A stretch of 64,000 nucleotides of DNA from Escherichia coli (GTDB lineage Bacteria; Pseudomonadota; Gammaproteobacteria; Enterobacterales; Enterobacteriaceae): NCBI RefSeq assembly GCF_965641715.1, contig NZ_OZ282454.1; one strand, given 5' to 3'. Shown here piece after piece: positions 951-64,000 of this stretch; position 1 is the stretch's first letter; every line of letters begins with the position of its first letter. Made by a program: the position numbers and the translations under genes. The notes below the pieces were generated by a model that saw only the letters and a program-made list of their open reading frames with translations, was not told the DNA's origin and searched no databases.

Positions 951-1694
951 TTAAAAATTGGGTTTAAAATCTTCAGAAACGTTCAGGAATTGTTTTGCCA
1001 GGTCGTCCTGCGAAATAAAACCGTATGATAACGGACGAACACTACCCTGTTTCGGGTCAACCAGCATCATGGCCGGGAAATATTTCACGCCGAGGCGCTG
1101 CGCCTGCCCCTGGTCAGTCCGGGAATCCGGCAACAGCGGATTAATCACGCCATCCACGGAAACGGGAATAACACTCAGACCATAGGTATCCCTGAAGCCA
1201 TTAATGACCTGCGCCAGCTGCCCGTCGATGGGGTCCTGCCCCCGGTAAAAGAACATGATGCCGTAGTGTTCAGCCAGTTTCGCAATGGCCTGTCGCTGCT
1301 GCGCCTGGTCTGCCGCCAGCTGGTTCCGGACCGTGCCGTTGTAATGGCTGTACTGCAGGTTATAGTCCAGTTCGGGATGCGCCAGTATGGCTTTTTTGGC
1401 GCTCATGGTGAAAAGCCCGGCCTGCTGAGTCCAGTAATTCTGCAGCCGGAAATATTTCACAAAATTATCCACGCCGGGATACAGAATAGCTTCGTACAGC
1501 GCCCGCTTTGTTGCCGTCTGCAGTGCGGCCAGTTTCTGCATAATGTCCGGCTCCTGACGGGGGGCTGCAGGTACTGGTTTATTTTCTTTTTCCTTCGGAT
1601 TTATTTTCTCGTTATACCACTGCCAGCCTGCATCTTTTCCTGACGCCGGAAAAATAAAGCAGCAGAGTAACCGTGGCAGTAATGCTTTATTCAT
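951..1694 (-). CDS. traF: TraF pilus assembly protein (thioredoxin-like)
   Basis: ORF 951-1724; start placed at internal Met (MNKALLPRLL) giving 247 aa as in F TraF. Confidence 0.88.
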   Translation of the reverse strand: MNKALLPRLLCCFIFPASGKDAGWQWYNEKINPKEKENKPVPAAPRQEPDIMQKLAALQTATKRALYEAILYPGVDNFVKYFRLQNYWTQQAGLFTMSAKKAILAHPELDYNLQYSHYNGTVRNQLAADQAQQRQAIAKLAEHYGIMFFYRGQDPIDGQLAQVINGFRDTYGLSVIPVSVDGVINPLLPDSRTDQGQAQRLGVKYFPAMMLVDPKQGSVRPLSYGFISQDDLAKQFLNVSEDFKPNF

Positions 1695-1947
1695 CTTCAT
1701 TCCTTTCATCACTTTTTCTTTCATCAGGTTTCTGCAGGTCAGTCAGGGCAGAAAAACAAAAATACAGAATAAACAGGAGCACACCGGAGTAAAAAATAAC
1801 GAAAGCAGCAGCAAGTATCTCACCTGCAGTGGTTTCTTTTACCGTATCCCACGACCAGATAATTACCGGGGAAATGACAATCGCTGTAATCAAAAGCCGG
1901 ATAAGAAAATCAATAAAACGGTTCGACGTGAATATGACTTTCATCAT
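1687..1947 (-). CDS. trbE: TrbE small membrane protein
   Basis: 86 aa ORF, hydrophobic, position between traN and traF as in F. Confidence 0.8.
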   Translation of the reverse strand: MMKVIFTSNRFIDFLIRLLITAIVISPVIIWSWDTVKETTAGEILAAAFVIFYSGVLLFILYFCFSALTDLQKPDERKSDERNEDE

Positions 1948-1970
1948 TTTCCCCGGTTATTTTCCCTACC

Positions 1971-3779
1971 TTACTGTCCTGCCTGTTTCAGCTGGTCAGC
2001 AATCTGCTCTTTCACTTTCTGCGTCAGAACACCACTGTCCGGGATTTTCTGGTTATTCATCAGGTCTTCGTAGAAGTTAGTGAAATCCAGTCTGTCGAAC
2101 TGAATTTTCTGCAGCTCATCAACCGTAATCCCCCGACAGTCAGGATGTTTCGCACTGCCAAAACTGATACGCAGCTGTCCGTTGCGCCCCTGCTGCTGGA
2201 CTATCTGCGCCAGCTTCGAATCAAACTGACAGTAACTGCGTTTTTTCTCCAGGCAGACACCCAGCACTTTCTTCGAACAGAACTCTCCGACACTGACGGT
2301 CAGTTTGTTTGATTTTGCTTTAGCCAGGGCCTTTTCATCACTGCTGCATTTGGCCAGCCCGATATCCTGTCCCCAGCCGCTGTCCTTACAGCAGTTGCTG
2401 TATCCGGCTGCAGCCTTCTTACAAAATTTCGCCTGACCGGTGAAAGCACGGACATCCACCCCGTTCAGCGCCGCAACATCCTTACCTGCTGCGGCCAGTG
2501 CCGCCAGCTGAGAAACGGCTTCGGCAAAATCATTACTCTGCCCGCTCTGAGCCTTATCACATTCGCCATCGAGACAGAAGACGTCTCCCCCACAGACCAT
2601 CACTTTCCCGGATGTTTTTGACTCACAGGAGTAGGTGGCATATTCATGCAGACAGGCACCTTCTTCGGAGTAAAAGGCGCACTGGTGTGACACCAGGGTA
2701 CAGGCAGGATTGTCGGTGTAGGTCTGACAGGTTCCCTTGTCTGCTGACTGCGTGACATACGTGTCCCGGTATGCCCAGCAGCTCTGGTACATGCTGTATG
2801 ACTGACCATCTTTCACCAGCGTCCTGTTCTCGCCAGCCTCCGTACATTCTGTTTTTGTCAGTTTCCCCAGCTCCTTGCTGAACGGGCAGCTTTCAGACCA
2901 GACAACATACGGGGTGTACGAGGCTTTTTTTACCCTGACAACCAGACGCAGCTTCATTGCCGTATGACGTCTGAATTTTGTATTCCCGACCCGGACGGGG
3001 TGAGATGACGTAAAAGCAACACCGGCAGTCAGTGTTTTCTGTACTGGTGTAAATGAGGCATCTGCTGAGTATTTGGCATTCCAGCTCAGTGGGGTTCCCA
3101 GTACTGTAATTGTCATAGGTACACTCTTCTGCAGGTAAGTACGACTCCAGCTGTAATGCGCATCGACAATTTCACCGGTAACGGGAGAGGTAATGGAGAC
3201 AACATACTGACCATTCACTTCACGTGCAGGTAGCTGACTCATTTCATACTCCAGCGTCCGGGTTTCCCATGTGGTACTCCCCTGCAGCTCCATACGGGCA
3301 GTTCGTGTGCAGTACTGCTCCACCTGTAAATCCCTCTCACAGGAGTAATTCGTGTATTCACTCCGGCTAATCTCCTGCGCACTGCACTGCTGCCCGGTGT
3401 TTCCCACAATGCTGTCAGCCCGGTTCACCACATCCCTGCCGGTCTGGATAAACGGTGCATCCGGTGAAAGAATGTCTTTCGGCTTGTTCATGAATGACTC
3501 TGTGATGGTTTTTCCGGTTTCACCGGTCGCCCATTCCGTGGTGCCGTCATTTTTCAGGCCACCATCCCCGCCGGCAGTCACGCCACCGTAATATTTTGTC
3601 TCGTCCGGATTCGCGTTATAGCCGGGGATACTCTCCTGTGGCTTAAAGCCCTGAATACTGCTGCTTCCCTGTCCTTTGATCTGGTGAGCAAAATCAGAGC
3701 CGGCCCGGTAATCACTGTTGCTGTCAGCCTGTGCCATGCCGGCAACCAGAGCCAGTATCAGAGGTAAAATACGTTTCAT
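1971..3779 (-). CDS. traN: TraN mating-pair stabilization outer-membrane protein
   Basis: 602 aa Cys-rich ORF with signal peptide; length and position match F TraN. Confidence 0.92.
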   Translation of the reverse strand: MKRILPLILALVAGMAQADSNSDYRAGSDFAHQIKGQGSSSIQGFKPQESIPGYNANPDETKYYGGVTAGGDGGLKNDGTTEWATGETGKTITESFMNKPKDILSPDAPFIQTGRDVVNRADSIVGNTGQQCSAQEISRSEYTNYSCERDLQVEQYCTRTARMELQGSTTWETRTLEYEMSQLPAREVNGQYVVSITSPVTGEIVDAHYSWSRTYLQKSVPMTITVLGTPLSWNAKYSADASFTPVQKTLTAGVAFTSSHPVRVGNTKFRRHTAMKLRLVVRVKKASYTPYVVWSESCPFSKELGKLTKTECTEAGENRTLVKDGQSYSMYQSCWAYRDTYVTQSADKGTCQTYTDNPACTLVSHQCAFYSEEGACLHEYATYSCESKTSGKVMVCGGDVFCLDGECDKAQSGQSNDFAEAVSQLAALAAAGKDVAALNGVDVRAFTGQAKFCKKAAAGYSNCCKDSGWGQDIGLAKCSSDEKALAKAKSNKLTVSVGEFCSKKVLGVCLEKKRSYCQFDSKLAQIVQQQGRNGQLRISFGSAKHPDCRGITVDELQKIQFDRLDFTNFYEDLMNNQKIPDSGVLTQKVKEQIADQLKQAGQ

Positions 3780-4417
3780 TTCCCGGAATCTCCTTTCCCT
3801 GCCAGTAAATCATGAGCCACCTGCCGGCAGTCACCCGTGGCGGCCACTTTCTCCAGCGCCTGGCCGACCCGCAGGTTTCCCCGGATGATGTCGTATCCCT
3901 GACTGCAGAACACCACCAGTGCCGGTACACTGCGAATGCCGTACTGTGAAAACAGCGTCGGGTCGATCTGAACACCATCAGTCGCGCCGTCTTTCACCAA
4001 GGACAGCACGGCTTCAGCGGTGGTCTTCAGGTCATTGTTCACCATGCCCCGCAGTGTGGCGGGTATACCGTAGTGCCGGGTTTCGCCCAGCATTCGTTTC
4101 AGCCCCTCTTCGGGAATGGAAAACGACACAAAATACAGAGCACCCTGCCGGGGTTTCCCGTCCTGCGAAGCCTGCTGTTTACGAACCAGCTCATCCAGGA
4201 AATGGTTATCTGAACGCTGAAGGGGGTTTTCCAGCACCTGTTTCCCCGCCCAGGCTTTCAGCTGATGGTCAGGTTTTTCACGCAGTTGTCTGCTTAAATT
4301 TTCCTGCTGCTTCAGGAACTGGCGGTTTTCAGGAGTGTTCACGTTTTCTGACGCCATAACCGCCCCGTTCAGCATCATCAGCAGTGCTGCCAGAGATTTC
4401 ATACTCAGCTTCATCAT
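3776..4417 (-). CDS. trbC: TrbC pilus assembly protein
   Basis: 213 aa ORF with signal peptide; operon position. Confidence 0.88.
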   Translation of the reverse strand: MMKLSMKSLAALLMMLNGAVMASENVNTPENRQFLKQQENLSRQLREKPDHQLKAWAGKQVLENPLQRSDNHFLDELVRKQQASQDGKPRQGALYFVSFSIPEEGLKRMLGETRHYGIPATLRGMVNNDLKTTAEAVLSLVKDGATDGVQIDPTLFSQYGIRSVPALVVFCSQGYDIIRGNLRVGQALEKVAATGDCRQVAHDLLAGKGDSGK

Positions 4418-4422
4418 TCACC

Positions 4423-5415
4423 TCACAGGAAGACACAGTTACGTTTACGCCACATCAGGTAGCCGAAGTTTTTCTTTGTATTGGGCGGATTTTTCCCGGT
4501 TTCCCAGCGGGTCACACTGCGCCCGAACGGGTGGCACTGTCCGCTGTCCGGGTACATATTCACCATCTGATAACGCCAGCGTTCTTTGGGCAGGATTGGG
4601 GACGGATATTCATTACAGACGGCGTTATTTTTCCCGATGGTTTCCATAATCATGCCCTGACGGTGCAGCTTGAACGCCATGCGTTCACTGACCAGCAGGG
4701 AGGACTGCAACGGACTGGACTCATTACTCACCCAGCCATTGAACGGGTACATACTGCCCTGCGAACCGGCACACTAGAACAGAACATCGAGAGGCATATT
4801 AAAGGCGCTGGCAATGGCATCTGCTGCACAGGCCCCCTGTGCTATCGGATTGGCAAAGATGACAGCTTCCGGATTGAGAATGGTGGTCAGGCTGCTGTCC
4901 GTCCAGGTGGGGTCAATTTCAGAAAGATAAGCGATATCCAGGTCACCACCTTCCAGACAGCCCAGCGATGTGATGATGTTAAGCCAGTACGTCAGCGGGT
5001 ATTTGTACCAGTGAACGTGATAGAACGCCCCGTTCACCTGCTTCTCATCTTTTTTCGCCGTTCCCTGTGCCGTTTTACCAAAAGCCGGCAGGCTGAAGCC
5101 CAGGTTAACCATGCATCCCGGTGACCGGGTGACGTCCGTCAGCGCCATCGGCTCCCAGTAACCAATGGCCAGCCCGATACGCCTGAACAGCGGCGGCGGT
5201 GCCGGACAAATCTGAATGGGCATCGACGGGTTCGCCGTGTCGGGGACCTTACCCTGACTGACTTTGATACTGCCCAGCGAGAGCGGGAAAATACAGCTCC
5301 AGCAGATATCCGTGATCGGGTTTACAAAACGCCCCTCACAGGCAGAATCCGCAGACGCTGCAGGGACATGACCGGCGAGAAGGAATAACATCAGCAGCCA
5401 CAGGCTTCGCTTCAT
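4423..5415 (-). pseudogene. traU: traU interrupted by an in-frame amber (TAG) stop at 4774-4776
   Basis: ORFs 4774-5415 (213 aa) and 4423-4752 (109 aa) are in the same frame, separated by TAG plus 7 sense codons (CAGSQGS); combined 330 codons equals full-length F TraU. Confidence 0.8.
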
Positions 5416-6427: not shown

Positions 6428-9054
6428 GCCACACTCCTGTATTTCTCATGTTCTTCCAGCCAGGCTTCCAGCGAAGCCATCTCCGGCCCTGACTTCTTCC
6501 ACGCCAGCTGCCACACCGCCTCATGAATACTCAGCCCCTCTTTACGCTTCTGCTGCACAAACTCAAAATCCGGGCCGTCAGAGCTGTACATGGCGCGGCT
6601 TAACGGGTCCACAAACAGACGGTGCCAGGAGGAGTGGTTCTCCACCTGCAGCAGGAAGGAACTGAACCACTGGTCTTTGGCCGCACCAAACTTACCAATC
6701 ATGTCGCGCTGCAGTGGCAGGAACTGGTCCGGATACAGCTGGTTGTATTTCGCGAACTCCTTCGCACTCTGTTTGAGGATCATTTTGTAGGAGGAGTTAC
6801 CCCATGCCGCGCGGGCAGCACTGGAGGCCTTGTCAGAGTCAAAGTCGACGATGTTCTGTGTGATGGTGATATAGGCACCGGTATGACGGCGGGCGGTACG
6901 GTAGCCTTTCTCAATAAATTCACCGACCTTGTGATTTTTGAAGTCCAGCAGACGCCAGCCTTCATCAATAACGTTCAGTTTCTTGAGGTTACGCGGCGTG
7001 CGGTACATCCTGTTCTCGATGTAGATAATCAGGGAGAACATCACCGCAACCAGCAGTGACGGACGGTCTTCCAGTCCGCCCAGCTCCAGCACCACCATTT
7101 TTGCGTCATCCCGCAGGGACGGCTCATCAGAGTTAAAATACTGGCCGTAAGTGCCGTTGGCAGTGTACTGGTCAAGCAGCACAATCATTTCGTCCAGACG
7201 GCTGCGGATAGTCGGTGACTCGGCATACTGCTCGCTGTCACTGGCGTTTTTCAGGAAATCCACCACGTCATCAATACGTGCCCTGTTCTCTTTGGCCAGC
7301 CATGATGCCCTGACCGCCTGCAGCAGCAGACCTTCATGCACTTCATCCAGGTTACCGTTGGGGCTGGCCATCACCGACAGCTGGTCGCGGACACGCTCCG
7401 CTGACTGGTCAATATCGGTGATGTTCGCAAACGGGTTAAAGCGCAAGGTTTCACCGTCCAGATATACGCCCCCCATGTTCTCACACAGGGACTTGTAGCC
7501 ATCCCCCATGTCGAACACCACGGCAAAGCCCCCGGAGTCCAGCACGCTGCGGATAAGTGGCTGTATCAGCCCGGTTTTACCGGCCCCGGAGGTGCCACAG
7601 ACCGCCATGTTGTAGTTGGTGTTATTCATCCCCCGGAAGAAAATATCGATAAACGCCAGCTGGTTACGGTAGGTGGGTGCCAGCAGACCTGCCGGTGTCA
7701 GGGGGTTATCCGCCACTAACGGCATCAGGTTGGCAACATTAAAGCTCTCTGCGCGCTGAACCACTCCGGCCTCTTTCAGCTGTTTAAACAGCCCTTTCCC
7801 GGCCATAAAGGGCAGGCAGGTCAGGAAATTGCGCATGTGGTTAAAGCGCGGTGAAATCAGCTCAAAACCGTTTTTACGAAAGCTGTTCAGGATGTCCTGC
7901 TCCACTTCCAGCGCCGTTTCATTATTGTCCTTGCAGAATGCTGTGATGTTGAGGAAGTAGGACACCACGGAGGACTGACCGGAGCCCAGCCGCTGACGCA
8001 GTTCCCCCCACTCCTTCGCCTCTTTCTCCACGGACGGAAACCATTTGGCATAGGAGGTCTTCGACTTTTTCTCCAGGTCCATGTACTTCAGGCTGGCTTC
8101 GCTGTGGGTTTTCACCTGGTCTTCCACCACCAGAGTCAGCGTCAGGATGAACGGACAGGAGATGGATAATTCCGGGTTCAGCAGGTTGCTGTAGTTGTCG
8201 GCCATGTTCCACAGGAAGGCGATTTCCGGGTTACGGGCCAGATGGAAATTCAGGATGCGGGCCGTGCTGTTCCTGCCGTTCTCACGCAGGCCCAGCGTCA
8301 GGTAATCAGCCCGGACTTTCAGATCAAAACTGTCCTCCACACACTGATAATTCAGATCAGAATACGGGTCCAGCTGACGTCTTTTCGGGTACAGGGAGTC
8401 CGGGTTATGGTTAATCATCTCCCCGACAATATCGATAAAGGCCTGTGCATCCACCGTCTGTGTGGTGATACTGGCCCCCTGTAACGACGCCCGGATGATT
8501 TTCACCAGGTTTTCCATTTCCAGAATGTCGGCCCGGCTTTTTTTCTTCGAAGGAGAACAGTACGAGATAAACACCCGGTAATGGCGCAGGGTCAGGGGCA
8601 GATTCATCCCCTCCGGCAGCGGAAACTGTGTCGCTGCCGCTTTCATATAATAGGCCCGGGTAATGGCGTTAAACCGTTCAGCCTGTTCACCTGACCAGGA
8701 GAACTCACGCAGCCCGTATTCAATCCTGTCACCAACCAGCTGACTGGACATCAGATGGATACACAACGGAATACCGCGCGGCAGTTTGGTGCGCAGCATG
8801 TGATCGAGGGCCTCCACAATGGACTCATTCGCCCCATTGATGGGAATGGCTTCCAGCATAAAGCCCATCGTGGTGTCATTCATGAACAGACCGGATTCCT
8901 GGTTATAATCACGGTACGGCAGCAGACGGCTGAACTGCGGGAAGCTCATTTCGCCCAGAACTTCATTGGCCTTTGCGGATTCGTCAGGCAGTTTCAGTGC
9001 TGTGACGAGGGAGTTAACCGCCTGAGTGACGGCCTCAAGTGGGTTATTACTCAT
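6424..9054 (-). CDS. traC: TraC conjugative ATPase (VirB4 family)
   Basis: 876 aa ORF near-identical to recalled F TraC N-terminus (NNPLEAVTQAVNSLVTALKLPDESAKANEVLGEMSFPQFSRLLPYRDYNQESGLFMNDTTMGFMLEAIPINGANESIVEALDHMLRTKLPRGIP); Walker A GTSGAGKT. Confidence 0.96.
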   Translation of the reverse strand: MSNNPLEAVTQAVNSLVTALKLPDESAKANEVLGEMSFPQFSRLLPYRDYNQESGLFMNDTTMGFMLEAIPINGANESIVEALDHMLRTKLPRGIPLCIHLMSSQLVGDRIEYGLREFSWSGEQAERFNAITRAYYMKAAATQFPLPEGMNLPLTLRHYRVFISYCSPSKKKSRADILEMENLVKIIRASLQGASITTQTVDAQAFIDIVGEMINHNPDSLYPKRRQLDPYSDLNYQCVEDSFDLKVRADYLTLGLRENGRNSTARILNFHLARNPEIAFLWNMADNYSNLLNPELSISCPFILTLTLVVEDQVKTHSEASLKYMDLEKKSKTSYAKWFPSVEKEAKEWGELRQRLGSGQSSVVSYFLNITAFCKDNNETALEVEQDILNSFRKNGFELISPRFNHMRNFLTCLPFMAGKGLFKQLKEAGVVQRAESFNVANLMPLVADNPLTPAGLLAPTYRNQLAFIDIFFRGMNNTNYNMAVCGTSGAGKTGLIQPLIRSVLDSGGFAVVFDMGDGYKSLCENMGGVYLDGETLRFNPFANITDIDQSAERVRDQLSVMASPNGNLDEVHEGLLLQAVRASWLAKENRARIDDVVDFLKNASDSEQYAESPTIRSRLDEMIVLLDQYTANGTYGQYFNSDEPSLRDDAKMVVLELGGLEDRPSLLVAVMFSLIIYIENRMYRTPRNLKKLNVIDEGWRLLDFKNHKVGEFIEKGYRTARRHTGAYITITQNIVDFDSDKASSAARAAWGNSSYKMILKQSAKEFAKYNQLYPDQFLPLQRDMIGKFGAAKDQWFSSFLLQVENHSSWHRLFVDPLSRAMYSSDGPDFEFVQQKRKEGLSIHEAVWQLAWKKSGPEMASLEAWLEEHEKYRSVA

Positions 9055-55113: not shown

Positions 55114-55614
55114 CACCGTTATATGTATTAGTCGCGACTTGATCTGACACATGGCCTTGAAAGGTTGAGAGTTACCGGTTTTGATATGGGTGTCGAATCC
55201 TTATACAAAACACGAGGTAACTCTCATGCTTCATACTACCAATCCCGTCATCAAACACAAAGCCGGTTTGCTCAATCTGGCTGAAGAACTCAGCAATGTA
55301 TCAAAAGCCTGTAAAATCATGGGCGTTTCGCGTGATACATTTTATCGCTATCGCGAACTGGCCGATGAAGGCGGTGTGGATGCGCTGGTTAATCGTAGTC
55401 GCCGCGCCCCTAACCTTAAGAACCGTACCGATGAGCTAACTGAGCAGGCCGTTGTCGATTATGCCGTCGCTTTCCCGGCGCACGGTCAGCACCGGACCAG
55501 CAACGAGCTGCGCAAACAGGGCGTTTTTATCTCAGGAAGTGGTGTCCGTTCTGTCTGGCTGCGCCACAATCTTGAAAACTTCAAAAAGCGTCTGAAAGCA
55601 CTGGAAGAAAAAGT
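55114..55614 (+). mobile_element. IS481-family element, copy 3, 3'-truncated by IS66
   Basis: identical to first 500 bp of copy 1; transposase ORF 55181-55618 cut after ...KALEEKV. Confidence 0.75.
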
Positions 55615-55651
55615 GTAAGCGTACAGCGAGGGCCGTATTGACGGGGATGTG

Positions 55652-57190
55652 TTATTCAGCTGGCAGTGCTATGCGCCACGGAAGCAGTTCGCTGACCCGG
55701 TTGACCGGCCAGTCTGCTATGACGCCAAGCACATGGCGAAGGTAGCTTTCTGGATCCACGTCATTCAGTTTGCACGTCCCGATCAGGCTGTACAGTAGCG
55801 CTCCCCGCTCACCACCATGGTCAGAGCCGAAGAACAGGAAGTTTTTACGACCCAGACTGACCGCCCGCAGGGCATTTTCAGCGATGTTGTTGTCGATTTC
55901 CACCCAGCCATCGTTCGCATAGTACGTCAGTGCCGGCCACTGGTTAAGTGCGTACGCGAACGCCTTCGCCAACTCTGAGTGTCGCGACAGGGTCTTCATC
56001 TTTTCACGCAACCAGCTTTCCAGGGATTTCAACAGCGGTTTCGTTTTTCGCTGACGTTCAGCAAGCCTCTGCTCTGCCGGCATTCCCCTTATATCCGCCT
56101 CTATGGCGTACAACTGACCGATCTGCTCCAGGGCTTCTTCCGTCAGTGCTGACGGGATGCGGACGTGCACATCGTGGATCTTTCGGCGGGCATGAGCCCA
56201 GCAGACAGCTTCCGTTATCCCACCATTGCGATACAGCTCGTTGAACCCGGCGTACGCATCCGCTTGCAGCACACCGCTGAAGCAAGCAAGATGAGTCTGC
56301 GGATGGATGCCTTTTCTGTCCGGGCTGTAAGCGAACCACACTGCAGGTGCCAACGCTGACCCAGCATTGCGGTCATCACGAACATACGCCCACAACCGCC
56401 CGGTCTTCGTCTTCTTATTACCCGGCAGCAGTACCTGGACCGGGGTATCATCGGCATGGAGTTTGCCGTCAGTCATGACATAGCCATGAAGCGCCTCTTC
56501 CAGCGGAGACAGCAGCCGGCAGCATGCATCCACCCAGCCCGACAGCAGTGAACGGCTCAGCTCCACACCTTGCCGGCCGTATATTTCTGACTGGCGATAC
56601 AGCGGGGTGTGCTCTGCATACTTCGAGGTCAGCACGCGGGCCAGCAGCCCCGGTCCGGCGATACCCCGCTCGATGGGCCGCGAAGGTGCAGGTGCCTGCA
56701 CGATGGCATCGCACTGAGTACAGGCATGTTTTTCCCGTACCGTCCGGATAACCCGAAAGGCGCTACGCATCAACTCCAGCTGTTCGGCGGTATCCTCGCC
56801 CAGATAGCTCAGTGAACCGCCGCAGTTCGGGCAGCACGGCGCCGCAGGCAACAGTCGCTTTTCGTCACGGGGTAGTGATTCAGGGAACGGCTTACGGGTG
56901 CGGGTCTGAGGCAACGGACGCTGTACAGCCGGGTCATACACCCTACCAGTCAGCGTATCGCTCTCTTTCTGAAGCCGGTTCAGATCGGCTTCCATTTGTG
57001 CGATACGGCGGGAGACTTTTTCGGAACGACTGCCGAAGTTCATCCGGCGGAGTTTATCCAGCTGCGCCTGCAGATGGTCTATTTCGCGCTCCCGGTTGCT
57101 CAGCTTTTCCTGCAGGGCGTGGATCAGCGCCTCCTGTTCGGCCAGGCGCTGTTTCAGCAGGAAGATGTCGTCAGAAGAGATGTCGTTCAT
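55652..57190 (-). CDS. IS66-family transposase TnpC
   Basis: 512 aa; leucine zipper, CPNCGG zinc-finger-like motif, DDE core. Confidence 0.9.
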
Positions 57191-57239
57191 AAGCCCGTAT
57201 TTTACCGGGCTTATTCTGTGACAACCAGGATAAAGAGAT

Positions 57240-57587
57240 TTACAGCATGGTCAGGGAGGTCAGCAGCCGCTTGGGCTGTCGCCAGTCGATACCTTCCAGC
57301 AGCATCGCCAGCTGCGCCTGCGTAAGGAACACTTTGCCATCACGGGCTGACGGCCAGGCGAAGCGCCCACGCTCCAGCCGTTTGGTCAGGAGGCACAGTC
57401 CGTCACCGGTGGACCACAGCAGTTTAACCTGACTGCCGCTGCGGCCCCGGAAAATGAAAACATGGCCGGACATGGGATCGTCTTTCAGCGCCGTTTGTAC
57501 TTTCGCAGCCAGGCCGTTGAAGCCATTTCTCATATCGGTGATACCGGCAACCAGCCAAATTTTGGTCCCGGAAGGTAACGGGATCAT
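57240..57587 (-). CDS. IS66-family TnpB (orf2)
   Basis: 115 aa ([31 protein letters not shown]...). Confidence 0.88.
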
Positions 57588-57985
57588 CGCTTCAGTTCCT
57601 GTATCAGCAGAGTCAGGAGCTTTTCGCTGACATTGCCATTGAAGCGGAGCGTCCCGTGCCGGAACGTTACCTCACAGCTGATACTGAGGGTTTCCGGGTC
57701 CTCTGCGAGCGATTCTGGCTGTTCGGCAGCTGCATCGAGAGTCACAGGAAGTAGCTGGGGGCTCTCTGAAGAAGGTAATAGCAGCTTTCCCTCGCGCCAT
57801 TGTTGTCGCCATTTGAACAACAGATTGGCGTTAATGCCATTTTCAAGAGCAAGTTTTGAGATGGATATCCCGGGTTCACAGGAGGCAGCAACGAGCAGCT
57901 GTTTAAATTCGGGAGGATAATTAGGGCAGCCTTTTCGCCTGCCGGGAGTCACATTTTTCTGCATATCTGACACTTTGGTTCCCAC
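57584..57985 (-). CDS. IS66-family TnpA (orf1, HTH)
   Basis: 133 aa, overlaps tnpB start. Confidence 0.85.
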   Translation of the reverse strand: MGTKVSDMQKNVTPGRRKGCPNYPPEFKQLLVAASCEPGISISKLALENGINANLLFKWRQQWREGKLLLPSSESPQLLPVTLDAAAEQPESLAEDPETLSISCEVTFRHGTLRFNGNVSEKLLTLLIQELKR

Positions 57986-58086
57986 TACTTATTTGGTGGA
58001 CACCACTTTGTCTAATTCGTCAGATTCTGACCAGACGGTTCAGGCTGTACGCTTACCTACAAAAATTACTCTCCGAATTACCTCCT

Positions 58087-58662
58087 GTGTCAGCGTTATC
58101 CGTGTTCGAACTTGCCGAATGGTTGCCCGGGATCGTGGGAATGAAAGAGGACGACATTACTCTCTTCAGCAGACAACCAGAACAGCAAAAAACGGAACAT
58201 GACACAAACAGAAGACTTCGTAGTGGCTTTTACTGGCGCTTTTATTTTGCTTTTACCGCCCCTAGGGATGTCCGTTCGCCAGACTTTTTCAGCCGGATGT
58301 TCATTTTAGCAGGCGATCCTGACCGTCAGCGTGAACTAAGCGAACTTCTCTTTGGCGAGCTTGAAGAAACAGGTTTCTCCTCGCGGACATGGTTTGAACA
58401 CGTTATTGATAAACTCACCATGGAAATGCTCTCCCAGGCAACTCCCGCACAGTGCCTAGGATTACTCCGCTTTATATTTATTAATGGCACAAAGATCTCC
58501 AGGTACTATCGACAGCGGGATGGAATCATGGGGCTGGAATCCGCTGGGTTGACAGAACTGGCGGACAGGCTTTTTCAACTTACACTTAATGCCACTCATA
58601 GGGGGGGATCGACTGTTTTAGCCATGCCCAGCAAGATCGGCAAACGTTCAACTGGGCCATGA
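58087..58662 (+). CDS. hypothetical protein, probably a fragment of a larger gene truncated by IS66
   Basis: 191 aa ORF starting 31 bp from IS66 end. Confidence 0.35.
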   Translation: MSALSVFELAEWLPGIVGMKEDDITLFSRQPEQQKTEHDTNRRLRSGFYWRFYFAFTAPRDVRSPDFFSRMFILAGDPDRQRELSELLFGELEETGFSSRTWFEHVIDKLTMEMLSQATPAQCLGLLRFIFINGTKISRYYRQRDGIMGLESAGLTELADRLFQLTLNATHRGGSTVLAMPSKIGKRSTGP

Positions 58663-59132
58663 CGTATCTCCGTCATCTGCTCTGGCAAAATGGTCTGGCC
58701 GGTACGCGACCAGTACCACCGAATGAAAGGGTGCTAGGTAATGATGATTTAAGACATTTGTGTCAACAGGCTGCTGCATGGCTGGAAAATCCAGATAACC
58801 AAGAAGCCATTCTGGCGAACGGCGAACTGTCTGATTTGGTGTATGCCTGGCGGGAAATCAGCACCACCGAATCTGTTGCGACGTGGCTAACCTCAGTAAC
58901 TGACAAGGATGATGTTTTTCTTGAGGTCTTGCTGCGGCTCCGTTATGACGGTATCCGGACTAATATTGGCCGTTATCAGGGATTGAAACTAAATACCTTG
59001 GCTGAATTCTTTGGCGGAGAAGAGTATATCCTGAAGAGATTAGATAATATTGAAGCTAAAGGGCATCTGACTGAACTGACCAGTCAAGTGAGGAAAGCTA
59101 TCGAACTCGACTCTCCAGACATTCCCCGATAG
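58659..59132 (+). CDS. hypothetical protein (coupled to or frameshift continuation of 58087-58662)
   Basis: 157 aa ORF overlapping the previous one by ATGA. Confidence 0.35.
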   Translation: MTYLRHLLWQNGLAGTRPVPPNERVLGNDDLRHLCQQAAAWLENPDNQEAILANGELSDLVYAWREISTTESVATWLTSVTDKDDVFLEVLLRLRYDGIRTNIGRYQGLKLNTLAEFFGGEEYILKRLDNIEAKGHLTELTSQVRKAIELDSPDIPR

Positions 59133-59255
59133 ATCACTACGTCTGCTCAGGAAAGAGCAACTGAGAAAACTGACTAAGCTAATGCAGATTGTACACTTCG
59201 CCATACACTGTCTCAAAGGCCCATAACGGGCCTTATTCTTATAAAATGAACAGAA

Positions 59256-60188
59256 TCAGGCGCTAAACGCTTTTTCTTTATCAAAAGGAACACCTGCATA
59301 CGCCAGTTCGCTCAGCAGCTTGCGTTTCCATCCACCATGTTCATCAAGCTCGGTATAAAGTACGCCTGCGAGATCGGAAGGTATTTCGATGTCACCCTTC
59401 TTGAGTACCAGTACTTTCCCGCGACCAAGTTTCCCCGCGAAATATCCGAGTTCATACAAGACATTTTGACGTGCACGCAGTCGCGTGCTTTCAGATGCCA
59501 AGGCATTCCCGCTATCGTCAGGCGTCATCAGCACGATGGCAAAGCTGACATCTCCTGACTCCGCTTCAAACTTCTCGATAACCGTCCTTGAGCCGTCAGG
59601 GCGTTCAGAAAGTATGATCTCCTCAAGCCCTACACGAGAGATAAAACGGGCAACAGATTGAAGGGCATCATTATCATGGCCATGAACAATAAAAACTTTT
59701 CGGGAAACCGGACGTAGCACTGCTGGCTCAGGAGCGAACTGATTTTCCACATACAACTGGTAATCACGGACGAATGGGACAAGTAATGATGAGGTAAACT
59801 TGCGGACAGATTCAATAACCCTGCGGTCGTAGAAAAATGTATGCCAGAAATTAAATGAAAAATTGTTATCGATCGCCATTTTCTGTATCAGCAGCAACTT
59901 CAAGCCCAAAATATCAGCTGGTTCTTCAGGCCATTGCAGCACAGCGGAACCAGCCATGCTGGATTCAGTATCTCCACTCCTGGCCAGAAAGGCATCAAGC
60001 TCAATATTGCGGGTCAGGCGTTCATTAACTGCCTGCAAGTTATCTGAGTTCAATAGCCGGGCCAGTTGTTTAAGAGGTTGCTGATAGTTCTGAACGTCAG
60101 CGCGCTGAAGATCGAATACGCAATTTTTAAGTGACTGAAAGATATCAATCGCCATCCTGTCCGCTCTCCTGTCTTTGTTGTTCTGCAC
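59256..60188 (-). CDS. protein with C-terminal TIR-like nucleotide-binding domain (Cap12/pfam10137-like) and unknown N-terminal domain
   Basis: 310 aa; residues about 165-300: KVFIVHGHD...IEKFEAE...FAIVLMTPDD...RARQNVLYELGYF.GKLGRGKV..L.KG...PSDL.GV.YTEL; alternative start Met at 60155. Confidence 0.6.
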   Translation of the reverse strand: MQNNKDRRADRMAIDIFQSLKNCVFDLQRADVQNYQQPLKQLARLLNSDNLQAVNERLTRNIELDAFLARSGDTESSMAGSAVLQWPEEPADILGLKLLLIQKMAIDNNFSFNFWHTFFYDRRVIESVRKFTSSLLVPFVRDYQLYVENQFAPEPAVLRPVSRKVFIVHGHDNDALQSVARFISRVGLEEIILSERPDGSRTVIEKFEAESGDVSFAIVLMTPDDSGNALASESTRLRARQNVLYELGYFAGKLGRGKVLVLKKGDIEIPSDLAGVLYTELDEHGGWKRKLLSELAYAGVPFDKEKAFSA

Positions 60189-60435
60189 TGTCCAGAATCT
60201 GTTGGCGCAGATTTTCTTTCATGTGTTCGATTAATGGACTGACCATAGGATTAGTGGCATAACCAGAAGCGCGTTCGTCCACCATGGAGTAGGCTTCCTG
60301 AATTGCGTTCTCAATGCTGCTAGGATCGTTAGCATCAAAACGAACATCATAACTTCCGTTTAAGGCCTCCGTTGCTCTCTCAACCTCTTTTAGCTGTTTC
60401 TGCATTTTGTCTAAACCTGTGATTTTGACGCCCAT
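60145..60435 (-). CDS. hypothetical small acidic protein, upstream partner of TIR-like gene
   Basis: 96 aa ORF overlapping the start of 59256-60188. Confidence 0.45.
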   Translation of the reverse strand: MGVKITGLDKMQKQLKEVERATEALNGSYDVRFDANDPSSIENAIQEAYSMVDERASGYATNPMVSPLIEHMKENLRQQILDSAEQQRQESGQDGD

Positions 60436-63161: not shown

Positions 63162-64000
63162 GGCTTGATATAAACCAAGCAGGCAAGGGATCTGGTTAAC
63201 ACCTTTCCTTCCATAAAGTGTTTGAAGATCCAGAGATACGTATCCACAAGCTCCAGCCCTGTACTCAGTGTCCCCGACTGGAAGACCTGCGGTTCAGCTG
63301 GTATTTCCGTTACATCCATGACCGGTGTCTGCGCAGCAGTGCCTGTCATCAGGATATTCATGGAGCCAGTCTGTATGCGCCTCTGGCGTTGAAACAAACA
63401 TATGAAGTGTATTTCGGATATGACTGTACGCTCAGGAAGTACGGCAGATTCCGTCAAAAATTACCTGTAAAGACAGACTTCAGAAAAAACGGTGCTCGCC
63501 GCAGACCGGTGACCGGGCGAAGCCCGCGAACCGGCGAGGAAGCGCAATGGATCTGTAATCACAGTGAGCAGGTACGCCCTGAAGCCTTCATAATCGGTAG
63601 TGTATGCTGTTTTTCCGGAATGATTTATCCACATATCCAGAGGCCCGATCCAGTAAATAGATCCATGAATGATCAATAAAGGATCCATTAAAGATCCCCA
63701 TATCGCTACAAACCTTGTCACTCATGGGCCGGGACCACGATCACATAAGCTGTGGCATGTTACTGATAAACTGTAATATGCTAATGATAAGCTGTATTCA
63801 GTAATGCATATACTGAAGTAAGTTAATGACATAAACTATGGTCAGTACGCCAGACTCTGTTGTTAAATACAGACTGCAGGTTTTTCTTCAGTCAGTTAGC
63901 GGGGCTCTGACACACGATTTGCTGTTTATTCTTTTACTGTCCACAGGCAGGAGGCTTTCTGGAAAACGAAAATTCAGACATCAAAAAACTGTTCGGCGAG

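Follow-up and report, generated by a model that had tools for sequence, protein, structure and literature searches.

Two open reading frames beside ISEc8 in Escherichia coli are very probably the remains of a single pifA-family gene

Open reading frames beside ISEc8 and their intact relatives

The window, a 64,000-nucleotide stretch of E. coli DNA (contig NZ_OZ282454.1), holds two plus-strand open reading frames (ORFs), ORF1 and ORF2, which are both present in the sequence and overlap by 4 nt, ATGA (Table 1). ORF1 opens with GTG and encodes 191 aa, ORF2 opens with ATG and encodes 157 aa, and the first of them lies 31 nt from the last base of ISEc8 (58056). This element has the tnpA-tnpB-tnpC gene set of the IS66 family, and its 22-nt terminal inverted repeats, beginning GTAAGCGTACAG, share the GTAAGCG start of that family; the name ISEc8 follows the annotation of sibling GenBank records. 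On the other side, the ORFs converge with a gene for a CAP12/Pycsar-type TIR protein (PF10137) and its small partner, the ORFs of which are uninterrupted in the window. Both the position of the two ORFs next to an IS66 end and their convergence with a TIR-like operon had been proposed in the original prediction, made from the same sequence, and both were confirmed. In the sibling GenBank records two 'hypothetical proteins' are annotated over ORF1 and ORF2, with the start of ORF1 placed by PGAP at an internal Met codon of the parent gene (Met418, window position 58141).

Table 1. Features around the ISEc8 junction (positions are those of the window)
Feature	Position	Strand	Description	Evidence
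Truncated IS481-family element	55118..55614	+	Left of ISEc8; 493-498 nt	99.8-100% identity to the beginning of complete 1.2-kb IS481-family copies in CP057088.1
ISEc8 (IS66 family)	55615..58056	-	2442 bp; tnpA-proximal end joined to pifA codon 390	
ISEc8 terminal inverted repeats	55615..55636 and 58035..58056		22 nt	
ISEc8 tnpC	55652..57190	-	512 aa	
ISEc8 tnpB	57240..57587	-	115 aa	
ISEc8 tnpA	57584..57985	-	133 aa	
pifA-like pseudogene remnant (probable)	58057..59132	+	Codons 390-747 of a 747-codon KAP-family NTPase gene and stop TAG (59130-59132)	99.7% nt identity to CP057372.1; tblastn; PADLOC PifA
Mechanical ORF1	58087..58662	+	pifA codons 400-573, then 17 out-of-frame codons ending at TGA	
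G7 homopolymer	58601..58607	+	-1 frameshift site	G8 in the intact sibling allele
pifA codons 574-747 in shifted frame	58608..59132	+	ORF2 (58659-59132) begins at internal Met591	
Terminator-like GC hairpin with T-rich tail	59216..59234	+	Between pifA stop and convergent TIR gene	Within the stretch matching intact relatives
CAP12/Pycsar-type TIR protein	59256..60188	-	Convergent neighbour outside the pseudogene	PF10137, E = 3.4e-37; PADLOC candidate PDC-S35, 1e-64
Partner ORF of the TIR gene	60145..60435	-	96 aa; upstream of and overlapping the TIR gene	

The original prediction regarded the ORFs as the 3' part of a larger gene, and comparison with intact relatives bears this out. A megablast search of positions 57900-59300 against complete E. 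coli genomes returned six plasmids at 87% nucleotide identity, and all six matches start at query base 158, which is window position 58057 and directly follows the IS, and reach the query end or stop at most 6 bases short of it. The gene under these matches is annotated 'KAP family P-loop NTPase fold protein', has 748 codons and is directly preceded by pifC ('transcriptional repressor PifC'). The Salmonella plasmid pSE49-2444 is closer (90% nucleotide identity) and carries pifC, a 747-codon gene and, downstream and convergent, the same TIR gene pair. The closest intact relative is found on the E. coli plasmid pRHB28-C15_2 (CP057372.1; 99.7% nucleotide identity), where an intact pifC and a 747-aa gene are arranged as in pSE49-2444 and again have the TIR pair as their convergent neighbour. 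The truncated form recurs, at 100% identity, on two further plasmids, CP055625.1 and CP057088.1; together with CP057372.1 they come from one UK pig-farm study. Intact relatives thus have 747-748 codons, of which the window keeps codons 390-747 only. This clade is rare: alleles at least 80% identical in amino acid sequence to the intact parent were found on only 14 of the 72,556 plasmids in PLSDB, and the PLSDB records at least 95% identical to the window allele are the one intact and two truncated ones, with no others. In the set of RefSeq complete E. coli genomes, identity to the closest pifA reaches only 87%, and no genome has the ISEc8-pifA junction of the window.

Base-by-base comparison with CP057372.1 locates the damage. 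Similarity starts exactly at window position 58057, the first base of pifA codon 390, and no alignment extends into the 60 nt before it. Over the remnant (7001-8245 in the numbering of the CP057372.1 locus) there are four differences in 1244 nt: two synonymous substitutions (P458 and L473), the nonsynonymous L581Q, which is a window-derived change, and the loss of one G that turns a G8 run into G7. Past the remnant, the match continues to window position 64000 at 99.0% identity. The inactivation of the gene looks recent, because only three substitutions separate 1.2 kb of the window allele from its intact sibling.

The single-base loss falls within pifA codons 571-573 and splits what remains of the gene into two mechanical ORFs. 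Consistent with this, tblastn with the intact proteins finds residues ~386-573 in frame 1 and residues ~572-747 in frame 3. The GTG 'start' of ORF1 is the internal Val400 codon of intact pifA, and ahead of the ATG of ORF2 the second frame still encodes codons 574-590. The ATGA itself is unchanged within the intact, single 747-codon ORF, where its ATG is the internal Met591 codon; together with the G8-to-G7 deletion, this implies that the overlap is a by-product of a 1-bp frameshift and no coupling signal. Two independently conserved ORFs with a stop/start overlap, as a translationally coupled pair would have, were not found. The original prediction had left the choice between coupling and frameshift open, and it is settled in favour of the frameshift; the 'gene pair' that it described consists of ORFs that do exist in the sequence, but the pair is a single broken gene.

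As the lesion amounts to a length difference of one base, 7 versus 8 G, and homopolymers are a classic site of errors in long-read and hybrid assemblies, G7 might instead be an assembly error. The remnant would then be a single open fragment of 358 codons, still truncated by the IS and devoid of the NTPase domain. Yet G7 is common to three assemblies (the window, CP055625.1 and CP057088.1), whereas the intact sibling sequenced in the same study has G8, although the G7 records all belong to one lineage and are not independent of each other. We consider such an error unlikely, and it would alter the number of lesions, not the truncation.

The ISEc8 junction and the missing 5' part

The other lesion is the junction itself, at which the end of ISEc8 directly abuts codon 390, so that pifC, the promoter region of the operon and codons 1-389 have been lost, including the whole NTPase domain with its Walker A and Walker B motifs. 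The missing part was searched for beyond the immediate flank. A tblastn search of the window with PifC gave nothing significant (best E = 0.071), and one with intact PifA recovered the remnant only. In CP057088.1, a complete plasmid of 140,512 bp with an identical junction, neither pifC nor pifA codons 1-389 are present, and the 7 kb upstream of the junction point in CP057372.1 are absent from the window and from all of CP057088.1. The pifC gene, present in the intact relatives, is thus not found directly upstream in the window. In CP057372.1 the region just upstream of the intact pifC (2516-4447 in locus numbering) also holds a 'nucleotidyltransferase' and a hypothetical gene, a pair that may represent another defence module and that, like pifC and 5' pifA, is absent from the window lineage.

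The flanks of ISEc8 bear on how the 5' part was lost. As stated in the original prediction, there is no target duplication: the 8 bp on the left, GAAAAAGT, differ from the 8 bp on the right, CTACAAAA. Two other ISEc8 copies on CP057088.1, which served as a positive control, have perfect 8-bp duplications (AAATCGGA and AATCAGTC), and the missing duplication is thus informative rather than typical of the element. It points to a secondary deletion or recombination at the ISEc8 copy of the window. Moreover, the left flank is a truncated IS481-family element, and therefore the two flanks of the IS were never contiguous. Fragments of IS21-family istA/istB genes are found still further left (53781-55111), and the whole pile-up of IS remnants on this side spans 53781-55614. 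CP057088.1, a 99.9% identical relative of the window that is rearranged (partly inverted) with respect to it, holds ISEc8 three times, together with at least four complete IS481-family copies.

We infer an IS-mediated deletion that followed or accompanied the insertion of ISEc8. In such a scenario, ISEc8 would have inserted into pifA or beside it, and a second IS-mediated event, after or along with the insertion, would have taken away both the 5' flank and the target duplication. Two routes would explain this second event: two ISEc8 copies in direct repeat could have recombined homologously, or an intramolecular transposition could have produced an adjacent deletion. An intermediate with both halves of pifA flanking ISEc8 was found neither in PLSDB nor among RefSeq complete E. 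coli genomes.

Family membership, predicted structure and expression of the remnant

The intact sibling protein matches the PifA model of PADLOC over positions 2-718 of 720 (E = 5.9e-264) and has the Pfam domain KAP_NTPase at aa 29-280. The same model matches ORF1 at positions 386-555 and ORF2 at positions 574-718. The two ORFs therefore cover the PifA model of ~720 positions only in part and, even together, do not match it at full length; the sequence is a fragment of a member of the PifA family, not a member. Pfam and NCBIfam scans of both ORFs returned no family, and their identification comes solely from the PADLOC PifA profile and the DNA comparisons. An alignment was made of 50 full-length PifA-family homologues taken from an exhaustive HMMER search; in it, the invariant residues of Walker A (G55, G57 and K58) and Walker B (D204 and D205) all lie upstream of codon 390, and neither Walker A (GxxGxGKT) nor Walker B (DDxD) is present in the remnant. 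The same alignment reveals a conserved motif in the C-terminal half, KRLGSPxHxRxYFAF, with invariant R442 and F453 (residues ~441-455, window ~58210-58254), as well as an invariant W654. The motif and W654 could mark a functional site of the C-terminal region of PifA.

As modelled by AlphaFold2 (mean pLDDT 85.2, pTM 0.76), the intact protein has a P-loop/AAA-like ATPase at its N terminus and a helical region at its C terminus, and the half retained in the window is all-helical. Neither break coincides with a domain boundary in this model: helix 380-395 is cut by the IS junction and helix 570-582 by the frameshift. Neither the intact protein nor the retained half has a sequence relative in the PDB. 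With the whole modelled protein, the best Foldseek matches are RdrA of RADAR and STAND/ORC/Cdc6-type ATPases (E about 1e-5), which resemble it in having an N-terminal ATPase followed by a helical region, although the similarity of fold is weak (TM ~0.3). Foldseek gave nothing specific for the retained half, and the weak matches are judged to be driven by the ATPase half that is missing from the window. PHROGs matches were confined to the N-terminal part of the protein.

If the ORFs were complete genes, homologues of their own size would be expected. A word-indexed protein search with the C-terminal 358 aa gave five fragmentary matches only, and the exhaustive HMMER search with codons 390-747 gave 130 cluster representatives. 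About 60 of the 130 are proteins of 706-790 aa that match at ~390-740. There are also short C-terminal homologues of ~355-400 aa, two of which were examined. One (P0109) starts 11 nt from the end of its contig, and the other (P0097) has an upstream KAP_NTPase ORF from which it is separated by an in-frame TAG and three codons, so that both were rejected as stand-alone proteins. The homologues that could be resolved are thus about 706-790 aa long and not full-length at the size of the ORFs, the two short ones being a contig-end fragment and a nonsense-split gene, so that the finding named as a refutation of the original prediction did not materialise. On metagenome contig k141_323107 (ENA; 1576-3786 in locus numbering), a distant PifA-family gene is interrupted by a single in-frame TAG, which leaves a KAP_NTPase ORF of 377 aa and, behind it, a C-terminal ORF of 355 aa; the split reflects either a further pseudogene or an error in sequencing.

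Expression of the remnant was assessed from its flanking sequence. No sigma-70-like site was found on the plus strand between 57800 and 59400, and no Shine-Dalgarno sequence convincing by eye precedes either the GTG at 58087 or the start chosen by PGAP. The pifA frame is open back into the end of ISEc8, and no ATG, GTG or TTG occurs in this frame between the preceding stop and 58087. With no recognisable promoter or ribosome-binding site, the remnant is most probably untranslated and non-functional. In addition to being frameshifted, it lacks its start codon, the entire NTPase domain, the repressor gene and the part of the operon nearest the promoter, and most probably it does nothing.

The retained half might nevertheless be expressed from an outward promoter of ISEc8 and have taken on a novel role, such as that of a decoy for, or a dominant-negative partner of, phage triggers or other PifA-like proteins. 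It is modelled as a well-folded helical region (pLDDT mostly >85), it keeps conserved motifs such as KRLGSPxHxRxYFAF, and its frame runs back into the IS end. However, the IS junction and the frameshift each break a helix, there is neither an in-frame start codon upstream nor a promoter-like site, and the one nonsynonymous change, L581Q, is window-derived. We regard such a role as very unlikely. A more specific version, in which the helical C-terminal half of PifA is the phage sensor and the remnant, transcribed from ISEc8 and translated from a non-canonical start, would bind phage triggers or the intact PifA-like proteins of co-resident plasmids and so modulate abortive infection, seems extremely improbable.

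Two real small genes, translationally coupled through ATGA, would fit the annotation of two 'hypothetical proteins' in GenBank, and a stop/start overlap of this kind is a common coupling arrangement. The same ATGA, however, lies inside the intact 747-codon ORF, the last 17 codons of ORF1 are the out-of-frame product of the G deletion, and the start of ORF1 is an internal Val or Met codon, before which neither a promoter-like site nor, by eye, a Shine-Dalgarno sequence is seen. Furthermore, the exhaustive HMMER search gave no verified stand-alone homologue, and there is hardly any chance that the ORFs are two genes. Finally, G8 runs are prone to slippage, and contingency loci use slippage-prone G tracts, but the idea that the tract is a programmed phase-variation or frameshifting site regulating pifA can be dismissed as next to impossible, as the gene in the window is already irreversibly truncated and the G8 run is specific to the E. 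coli allele of CP057372.1, the same site reading GGGAGGGG in the intact Salmonella allele and AAGAGGGT in p94EC-1, which argues against a conserved slippery site.

We thus return to the reading of a single dead gene. Positions 58057-59132 very probably represent the 3' 48% of one pifA-family gene that no longer functions. With equally high confidence, we regard the remnant as a pseudogene, truncated by an IS and frameshifted, that derives from an abortive-infection gene of a divergent PifA clade and is carried on an IncF plasmid. No evidence contradicts the pseudogene reading. The suggestion in the original prediction that the ORFs are the remnant of a defence gene is also upheld, as the parent matches the PADLOC PifA profile over its full length and adjoins pifC.

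Relation to F-type PifA and the loss of pifA genes

PifA, the 'P' in the name of the KAP family, is the abortive-infection factor of the F plasmid, which senses gp1.2 and gp10 of phage T7 and brings about membrane depolarisation and nucleotide leakage (PMC8594841, PMC13001434). The intact parent of the remnant resembles F-plasmid PifA (PADLOC PDLC02361) in matching the PifA profile from end to end and in having the KAP_NTPase domain, and it resembles the F pif locus in being preceded by a gene named pifC by PGAP and in residing on IncF plasmids. It differs from F PifA in sequence, however, being only ~37% identical across 98% of its length; among the matches at this level are a plasmid of E. 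coli K-12 and an entry with the annotation 'phage T7 exclusion protein'. The surroundings differ too, as no pifB-like gene follows pifA, its place being taken by the terminator-like hairpin and the convergent TIR gene. From its homology, the intact parent would be expected to function as F PifA does, through abortive infection with membrane depolarisation and leakage, and the ~37% identity together with the PADLOC match suggests anti-phage activity for the clade of the window allele. Its phage specificity may differ from that of F PifA, because the two are only ~37% identical. In another defence protein with a KAP NTPase, mutation of Walker B abolishes protection (PMC12632615), which supports the view that a fragment lacking the NTPase domain cannot provide PifA-type defence.

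The two genes of the operon differ in how well they are conserved between the two clades. PifC of the intact parent is 72% identical to F-type PifC, compared with 44% for the N-terminal half of PifA; between the F-type locus of NZ_CP063154.1 (5141-7661 in locus numbering) and the clade of CP057372.1 (4744-8077 in locus numbering), identity is 72% for pifC and 37-44% for pifA. From these values, the PifA effector/sensor appears to have diverged much faster than its repressor PifC.

F-type pifA has also been broken by ISEc8. In the IncF plasmids NZ_CP063154.1 (5058-6571 in locus numbering) and NZ_CP076275.1, the tnpA-proximal end of ISEc8 abuts a broken F-type pifA, and 5 of 5,426 complete E. 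coli genomes have this F-type pifA/ISEc8 junction. Unlike the window, these two plasmids keep pifC and codons 1 to about 470 and have lost the 3' part of the gene, which lies in the opposite orientation relative to the IS. This shows that the ISEc8 truncations of F-type pifA and of the window allele were independent events and that IS-mediated loss of pifA recurs.

The kind of event described here, a dead gene truncated by an IS and frameshifted, is well known and ordinary. In GenBank records of this plasmid lineage, one pifA pseudogene should replace the two 'hypothetical proteins', and PifA should be left out of defence-system counts for the plasmid of the window. The intact parent locus, which lies outside the window and combines a rare PifA clade with the TIR candidate PDC-S35, could merit a study of phage specificity. 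More broadly, defence genes of IncF plasmids are lost through IS activity, and ISEc8 has broken two different pifA alleles independently.
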